Positions 12,953 through 13,375 of a DNA stretch of 64,000 nucleotides are shown here, in pieces. The translations under genes were made by a program, and so were the position numbers. The DNA lies in assembly GCF_054482595.1 (NCBI RefSeq), contig NZ_CM137008.1. One strand, written 5' to 3'. The notes beneath the pieces are model-generated. The model worked only from the letters and a program-made list of their open reading frames with translations. It was not told where the DNA came from and did not search any database. Within the stretch, counting starts at the first letter, position 1, and the number at the start of each line of letters is the position of its first letter.

Positions 12953-13375
12953 ATGAAGAAAGTAGCCGCGTTTGTTGCGCTAAGCCTGCTGATGGCGGGA
13001 TGTGTAAGTAATGACAAAATTGCTGTAACGCCAGAACAGCTACAGCATCATCGCTTTGTGCTGGAAAGCGTAAACGGTAAGCCCGTGACCAGCGATAAAA
13101 ATCCGCCAGAAATCAGCTTTGGTGAAAAAATGATGATTTCCGGCAGCATGTGTAACCGCTTTAGCGGTGAAGGCAAACTGTCTAATGGTGAACTGACAGC
13201 CAAAGGGCTGGCAATGACCCGTATGATGTGCGCTAACCCGCAGCTTAATGAACTCGATAACACCATTAGCGAAATGCTGAAAGAAGGTGCACAAGTGGAT
13301 CTGACCGCGAACCAGTTAACGCTGGCGACCGCGAAACAGACATTAACTTATAAGCTGGCGGATTTAATGAATTAA
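12953..13375 (+). CDS. hslJ: Heat-shock lipoprotein HslJ
   Basis: ORF track 12941..13375; start at MKKVAAFVALSLLMAGC (lipobox) gives 140 aa. Confidence 0.9.
   Translation: MKKVAAFVALSLLMAGCVSNDKIAVTPEQLQHHRFVLESVNGKPVTSDKNPPEISFGEKMMISGSMCNRFSGEGKLSNGELTAKGLAMTRMMCANPQLNELDNTISEMLKEGAQVDLTANQLTLATAKQTLTYKLADLMN

Follow-up and report, generated by a model that had tools for sequence, protein, structure and literature searches.

A four-nucleotide tail-to-tail overlap of hslJ and ydbJ and the likely fate of transcripts that cross it

Overlapping convergent genes and how their transcripts end

It is established that Rho terminates untranslated or antisense transcription and that the 3' ends are then trimmed as far as a protective stem-loop; Peters et al. 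(2012) and Dar and Sorek (2018) reportedly described the Rho-dependent termination and the trimming to a protective stem. Bidirectional intrinsic terminators are said to lie between convergent genes, as recovered in the SEnd-seq work of Ju et al. (2019). General context for Rho-dependent termination and 3'-end trimming is available elsewhere (PMC6847712). Among convergent genes that overlap, overlap lengths show a discrete, over-represented jump at 4 nt, which arises from four sequences of that length, CTAA, TTAA, CTAG, and TTAG, and 58 convergent overlaps were counted in E. coli (Lillo and Krakauer 2007, PMC2174442). That survey of prokaryotic overlapping genes already notes that the terminator must sit within the coding sequence (CDS) of the partner.

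The pair treated here, hslJ and ydbJ, appears in two published data sets. Sanmartin et al. (2025, PMC12288877) list ydbJ-hslJ as one of 165 convergent "excludons" in E. coli MG1655, where a pair qualifies if the transcript boundaries drawn from RNA-seq cross in 50% or more of 58 MG1655 transcriptomes. Lorenz et al. (2010, PMC2887942) reported a genomic aptamer for Hfq, "antisense to ydbJ", at MG1655 v2 positions 1,439,032-1,439,135, represented by 157 reads and with binding shown by in vitro SELEX only; the corresponding "ydbJ asRNA" was detected by strand-specific RT-PCR. The hslJ/ydbJ overlap is thus already known, in that it is annotated in E. coli genomes and the pair stands in a published list of overlapping transcripts. 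This work asks what the junction looks like in a 64,000-nt stretch of DNA (the window, whose coordinates are used throughout), how it varies among related genera, and where the two transcripts are likely to end.

The junction, its two genes, and its variation among genera

In the window, hslJ and ydbJ lie between ldhA (11853-12842, plus strand) and ydbK/nifJ (13912-17436, plus strand). The elements that define their junction are the following.

12953 to 13375, plus strand: hslJ CDS, 140 aa, META-domain lipoprotein (direct reading, ORF list, profile matches, RefSeq)
13372 to 13638, minus strand: ydbJ CDS, 88 aa, DUF333 protein with a signal peptide and an L-S-A-C lipobox (direct reading, ORF list, profile match, RefSeq)
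13372 to 13375, no strand assigned: shared tetramer TTAA, containing both stops (direct reading; same in K-12; class described in PMC2174442)

Read directly, the plus strand ends hslJ with ...GAT TTA ATG AAT TAA TAG, which places the stop at TAA 13373-13375 with an in-frame TAG directly behind it. The minus strand ends ydbJ with ...GGC AGC TAT TAA, the stop being the complement of 13372-13374. The palindromic TTAA is common to both coding sequences and makes a 4-nt overlap, within which the stop codons share 13373-13374. The ORF listing of the window gives the same ends, as does RefSeq for strain XH990 (100% identical over the query, with the hslJ and ydbJ coordinates unchanged) and for K-12 MG1655 (ydbJ 1441058-1441324, hslJ 1441321-1441743); the overlapping stops claimed by an earlier, sequence-only reading of this DNA are therefore correct. 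A 111-nt query centred on the junction matched 5,412 of 5,426 complete E. coli genomes, with at least 99% identity in 5,115 of the 5,412. Beyond E. coli, both C-termini are conserved across genera (HslJ ending in DLMN and YdbJ in SCG followed by S or N and then Y, each directly before the stop), so neither stop is an accident of sequencing or annotation.

The idea that one of the stops, or ydbJ itself, is unreal and that there is no true overlap has a negligible probability. It can draw on the small size of ydbJ (88 aa), on the lack of an NCBIfam model for it, and on its inconsistent naming, yet YdbJ matches DUF333 above the curated cut-off (E 1.1e-13 in a profile search), is 75-99% identical across genera with its C-terminus and stop kept, and has a published transcription start site (TSS) and a conserved promoter upstream of the gene. 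A mis-annotated stop or a spurious ydbJ was rejected on conservation, and the concern that resequencing might reveal a different true stop is ruled out by the near-invariance of the junction in 5,412 E. coli genomes. We conclude that two real genes genuinely overlap tail to tail here by the 4-nt TTAA, and that they have done so for a long time.

The start of hslJ is ATG 12953; the TTG at 12941 given by the ORF list is only the mechanical first start. In profile searches, HslJ gave E 1.9e-25 against the META domain and E 2.8e-78 against the NCBIfam HslJ equivalog; no NCBIfam model matched YdbJ. Both are real protein-coding genes conserved across Enterobacteriaceae, YdbJ being the more conserved of the pair (HslJ identity ranges from 50 to 98% across genera). 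The earlier description of the two as lipoprotein genes holds for HslJ, which is annotated as such in K-12, and for YdbJ comes only from the canonical L-S-A-C lipobox in its sequence. A homology search with YdbJ, in which META-DUF333 fusions would have hinted that the two are functionally linked, gave only close single-domain relatives. Most E. coli records in RefSeq call the 88-aa protein "putative hemolysin", while others have "DUF333 domain-containing protein"; the first of these looks like an unproven legacy label.

Of the 5,419 places in complete E. coli assemblies that matched this chromosomal region, five are on plasmid-typed records. A contig assigned to Alkalicoccobacillus porphyridii (413 nt, coverage 1.3) is 100% identical to the E. 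coli junction, and a contig of "Chryseobacterium sp. 18061" bears ldhA-hslJ-ydbJ-pfo in an enterobacterial form; contaminating DNA or wrongly labelled assemblies would seem to be the source of both.

The overlap is not a rarity. The window holds eight convergent junctions, with spacings of -26, -4, +20, +43, +49, +50, +110, and +128 nt, two of which overlap. The frequency of overlaps like hslJ/ydbJ is not above the chance background, and this one is of the kind most often met among tail-to-tail overlaps. Two other junctions of the window are also in the excludon list (PMC12288877): mpaA/ycjG (42099-42124), with a 26-nt coding overlap, and dgcM/smrA (25072-25091), with a 20-nt gap.

To follow the junction beyond E. 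coli, hslJ loci were taken from 46 species-level genomes, and the stop geometry was computed for each locus. Convergent adjacency of hslJ and ydbJ is kept in Escherichia, Citrobacter, Klebsiella, Raoultella, Enterobacter, Kluyvera, Pluralibacter, Pseudocitrobacter, and Cedecea-like genomes. The spacings were distributed as follows.

-7 nt: 3 of 46 loci
-4 nt: 13 of 46 loci (TTAA, CTAG, or TTAG; Escherichia and many Klebsiella/Raoultella)
0 nt: 1 of 46 loci
+2 to +13 nt: 25 of 46 loci (Citrobacter mostly +13)
+45 to +124 nt: 4 of 46 loci (GC-rich hairpins inserted)

Three added genera gave +32 (Salmonella), 0 (Cronobacter), and -7 (Kosakonia). Judged from these sequences, what persists is a very short junction, of which the overlap is but one among several interchangeable states. 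Where spacers are present, they carry a short GC-rich hairpin without good U-tracts; the Salmonella spacer (locus L052, 1768-1799), for instance, has the hairpin GCGC-CA-GGC-AAAAC-GCC-GCGC. The larger spacers of Klebsiella pneumoniae, Raoultella, and Enterobacter resemble inserted REP-like palindromes.

These data bear on a purely neutral account, in which the overlap, a stem-loop described below as H1, and the antisense RNA are all by-products (of stop-codon drift, of conserved YdbJ sequence, and of leaky read-through cleaned up by Rho, respectively), and the expression of both genes is unaffected. The junction length ranges freely among genera, from -7 to +124 nt, and a 4-nt overlap is the modal class expected from stop-codon mutation (PMC2174442), both of which speak for it. 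The gap is nevertheless 13 nt or less in 42 of the 46 loci, which suggests that the tight junction is itself maintained. On all the evidence, including that from H1, we regard the wholly neutral account as unlikely, though deserving of weight.

Stem-loop H1, read-through, and the antisense RNA of ydbJ

Because there is no intergenic DNA between hslJ and ydbJ, each mRNA must end within the other gene. The absence of an intergenic terminator, another point of the sequence-only reading, is in this sense trivially so, and scans of both strands for intrinsic terminators at or near the junction found none convincing: they returned one weak 7-bp hairpin on the minus strand, against 1.8 expected in shuffles. 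An Rfam scan of 12500-14200 with E values up to 1 found no family. The structures near the junction are listed here.

13369 to 13400, minus strand: 7-pair hairpin where ydbJ ends, weakly terminator-like, with the tail CTATTAATTC (not above chance, not conserved)
13390 to 13431, plus strand: H1, an 18-bp stem-loop of hslJ-sense RNA (z -3.3 on the plus strand, 0.04 on the minus strand)
13432 to 13693, plus strand: C-rich, G-poor untranslated RNA, rut-like (base composition)
13687 to 13749, plus strand: T1, a GC-rich stem at 13687-13729 (-24 kcal/mol), then CCGCA, then UUUUUACUUUUUUUU (folding and composition)

H1 begins 15 nt past the hslJ stop and is antisense to the ydbJ codons for PNGKRCSEQSLAAG. 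Its stem includes four G.U pairs and bulges an A at 13404, and its loop reads UCACU. It has no trailing U-tract and is the most structured 60-nt plus-strand window in 12900-13900. The predicted stability is -27.1 kcal/mol on the plus strand and -18.3 kcal/mol on the minus strand; the structure is weaker on the ydbJ strand because the four G.U pairs turn into A.C mismatches there. Two terminator types were considered for it and ruled out. H1 is no canonical intrinsic terminator, as UAAUGCACACAU rather than a U-tract follows it, and no bidirectional terminator, as it lacks both an A-tract and a U-tract and is weak on the ydbJ strand.

Since the protein segment encoded opposite H1 is highly conserved, we tested whether the hairpin is merely a by-product of it. 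In E. coli, synonymous recodings of the segment gave a null distribution of -14.7 +/- 3.8 kcal/mol, only 0.2-0.4% of recodings were as stable as H1, and 0.1% matched its strand asymmetry. Seven genus-level lineages gave the recoding signal (p 0.000-0.04), namely, Escherichia, Citrobacter, Salmonella, Cronobacter, Kosakonia, Pluralibacter, and Cedecea-like genomes; because of their shared ancestry, they do not amount to independent tests. The signal was absent in four lineages, Klebsiella, Raoultella, Kluyvera, and one Enterobacter. In the first three of these H1 is degraded. With respect to covariation, 84.6% of cells pair, compared to 83.4% after within-column shuffling, and about three pairs have changed on both sides. 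Because the pairing is largely explained by column conservation, we do not claim a proven RNA element; from its sequence, H1 is a plausible but unproven one. We infer that its role would be that of a protective 3' stem of hslJ mRNA, distinct from a canonical terminator.

The same results cut both ways for the neutral account. H1 pairing that is almost wholly column conservation, the loss of H1 from Klebsiella, Raoultella, and Kluyvera while the gene pair was kept, and the lack of a prominent 3' end mapped at the locus by Term-seq (Adams 2021) are all what it would predict. It does not, on the other hand, provide for a stability and strand asymmetry that exceed the demand of the protein sequence in seven genus-level lineages. 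The Term-seq and Rho tables of Adams 2021 were searched by gene name and coordinate prefix and held no mapped 3' end at the locus, for which low expression is a possible reason. Likewise, the supplements of that study contained no Rho-termination or bicyclomycin-sensitive region in K-12 1,440,900-1,441,499, a result that is uninformative if expression was low. As the one Term-seq/Rho data set searched, it weighs against the reading favored below.

RNA of the hslJ strand past the stop is rich in C and poor in G. The C/G ratio is 1.58 over 13376-13638 (263 nt) and 3.1 over 13577-13693 (40% C, 12% G), while the bias of ydbJ-strand RNA past its own stop is milder (1.24). The composition sought for a Rho loading region (untranslated, C-rich and G-poor, about 80 nt or more) was found on the hslJ strand, and by this measure the antisense of ydbJ looks like a Rho loading zone. 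Farther along, T1 has a U-tract but with a 5-nt spacer; it lies 310 nt downstream, close to the ydbJ start on its upstream side and ahead of the ydbK promoter. Its sequence makes T1 a candidate end point for hslJ-strand read-through, strong in Escherichia only. As a conserved terminator it was rejected as a general feature, being weak or absent in other genera, and the conserved T-rich block at this position may instead be part of the ydbJ/ydbK promoter region.

The claim that the transcripts must run into each other's coding region follows logically from the overlap, and published data agree with it: the boundaries of the two transcripts cross in half or more of 58 transcriptomes (PMC12288877), and 5'-antisense RNA of ydbJ was detected by strand-specific RT-PCR (PMC2887942). 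The mapping of 3' ends by RNA-seq that had been proposed to check the claim therefore exists in coarse form (PMC12288877). It confirms overlapping boundaries, but its criterion is automatic for any expressed pair with overlapping coding sequences. The source of the antisense RNA was approached through the promoters and the aptamer of the locus.

12891 to 12918, plus strand: hslJ promoter-like site ATGACC-16-TAAAAT (crude consensus scan)
13681 to 13709, minus strand: ydbJ promoter-like site TCGACG-17-TATTAT (consensus scan; both hexamer blocks conserved across genera)
13585 to 13688, plus strand: Hfq aptamer "antisense to ydbJ" (PMC2887942, mapped via MG1655 coordinates)

The hslJ promoter-like site is the only plus-strand sigma-70-like match in 12700-14000. 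The crude consensus scan found no plus-strand promoter-like site inside ydbJ, although there may be an independent antisense promoter in it, and hslJ read-through is therefore the simplest source of ydbJ asRNA. The aptamer was placed in the window by using K-12 coordinates and an inferred v2-to-v3 offset of 1,976 nt, which agrees with the published ydbK/ydbJ coordinates and with the position of the Hfq motif AAYAAYAA. That motif occurs as AACAATAA at 13598-13605 (plus strand), within the mapped aptamer and opposite ydbJ codons 12-14. The mapped aptamer is on the hslJ strand and faces the ydbJ start codon and ribosome-binding region. If hslJ is its source, the ydbJ asRNA would be read-through of at least 210-310 nt.

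The position of the aptamer also raises a regulatory reading, in which hslJ read-through, with the Hfq-binding AAYAAYAA facing the start of ydbJ, would repress that gene in cis as an antisense RNA, by pairing, RNase III cleavage, and polymerase collision, and ydbJ transcription would in turn dampen hslJ, so that expression of the two envelope proteins becomes mutually exclusive. We consider such a regulatory excludon improbable. The listing of the pair among convergent excludons (PMC12288877) points toward it; however, ExcludonFinder would list any expressed pair with overlapping coding sequences. The Hfq aptamer with its 157 reads and the RT-PCR detection of ydbJ asRNA, opposite the ydbJ ribosome-binding region, also count for it (PMC2887942), but Hfq binding was seen in SELEX in vitro only, and the C-rich antisense predicts that Rho removes most of the read-through before the ydbJ start. 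The control inputs of the two genes do differ, hslJ being named as a heat-shock gene and the ydbJ promoter region being bound by sigma-S RNA polymerase. The literature searched, on the other side, held no pair-specific anticorrelation, dsRNA, or RNase III data.

The flanking regions yielded further observations. The published ydbJ TSS maps to approximately position 13667 of the window. In the ldhA-hslJ spacer (12843-12952), a GC-rich hairpin, GCTCCCCTG-CAAT-CCAGGGGAGC, lies at about 12850-12873, just past the ldhA stop, and because its U-tract is poor, ldhA transcription may, judging from the sequence, read through into hslJ. The ydbJ-ydbK divergent intergenic region (13700-13830) contains the cross-genus conserved blocks CGTCGAGAG, CATTTTCTGGCAATTTTTTG, TTGATCAAA, GACACAAAAGCGAAAATG, and TTTGCTAAAAT, with GCGCATTTATGCGC conserved in Citrobacter and others; promoters and regulator sites probably lie in these blocks, both for ydbJ and for ydbK, which SoxS and sigma-S control. 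Inserted genes have enlarged this region to 1.2-1.4 kb in several species. The ydbK/nifJ leader (13857-13911, plus strand) has a stem, GGGCGCGCAG...CGTGCGCCC in E. coli, at about 13861-13886, whose sequence differs between genera while its pairing and position are kept; it is followed by a U-rich run and then by the invariant TTGCGCAATGTAAGGGTGTC right before the ATG. This element looks like a 5'-UTR stem-loop or an attenuator. The leader had no Rfam match, and RNAalifold on a MAFFT alignment gave no structure, the variable stem arms being misaligned.

A proposed course of transcription and its relation to known systems

We favor, with a probability of approximately 0.6, a reading that takes together a near-neutral overlap in a compact junction, the H1 stem, and read-through ended by Rho. 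Near-neutral drift of the stops, within a junction held to a very short length, is the most likely origin of the overlap and the most likely reason that it has lasted. The hslJ transcript would first form the stable, strand-specific H1, encoded in the last ydbJ codons, and H1 would cap the mRNA. Polymerases that pass H1 would make C-rich, G-poor untranslated RNA antisense to ydbJ, over which we infer that Rho ends the read-through. In Escherichia, the T1 hairpin and U-tract just ahead of the ydbK promoter could act as a further stop. Transcripts from ydbJ would enter the untranslated antisense of hslJ and would probably be ended there by Rho. When both genes are on, their transcripts would have complementary 3' regions (a "convergent excludon"), and polymerase collision and duplex formation are possible.

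A more ambitious proposal would make the pair a dual-coding module: a conserved 3' stem of hslJ in the synonymous sites of the last 14 ydbJ codons would combine with a Rho-limited, Hfq-binding antisense over the ydbJ ribosome-binding site to couple hslJ induction to ydbJ repression. This is improbable as it stands. If true, it would place a protein on one strand and a functional 3' UTR on the other within a conserved tail-to-tail pair.

The overlap is ordinary and carries little weight in itself; its value is as a clean example of where convergent transcripts end when there is no room for a terminator. H1 is the element of specialist interest, being strand specific, located in ydbJ codons, and more stable than the protein demands in several genera. 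Were it the functional 3' end of hslJ, a 3'-UTR element and the coding sequence on the opposite strand would here constrain each other.

Set beside the bidirectional terminators of convergent genes, the locus is alike in having one hairpin near the meeting point of hslJ and ydbJ. It differs in that H1 has no flanking A- or U-tract, is markedly weaker on the ydbJ strand, and lies inside a coding sequence. The likeness to Rho-dependent termination with a protective stem is in the C-rich, G-poor untranslated RNA past the stop and in the stable stem nearby without a U-tract; here, in contrast, the stem lies within codons of the gene on the other strand, and composition is the sole criterion by which Rho dependence was judged. 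As in the Hfq cis-antisense RNAs of Lorenz et al. (PMC2887942), the ydbJ aptamer is an enriched cluster with AAYAAYAA opposite the start, although the ydbJ antisense would most simply be an extended 3' region of hslJ and not a separate antisense gene.

With the convergent excludons of Sanmartin et al. (PMC12288877) the pair shares an explicit place in the 165-pair list. A functional excludon involves mutually exclusive expression and RNase III processing, whereas ydbJ-hslJ is listed on transcript overlap alone, which its coding sequences already supply. The closest counterpart is the 4-nt stop/stop class of Lillo and Krakauer (PMC2174442): two real convergent genes have their stops in one tetramer, here TTAA. 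Every defining feature of the class was tested and found at hslJ/ydbJ, with no substantive difference, and the locus is a textbook member. To the class it adds the detail that the orthologous junction is TTAA, CTAG, or TTAG depending on the genus and, elsewhere, a -7 overlap or a small gap.
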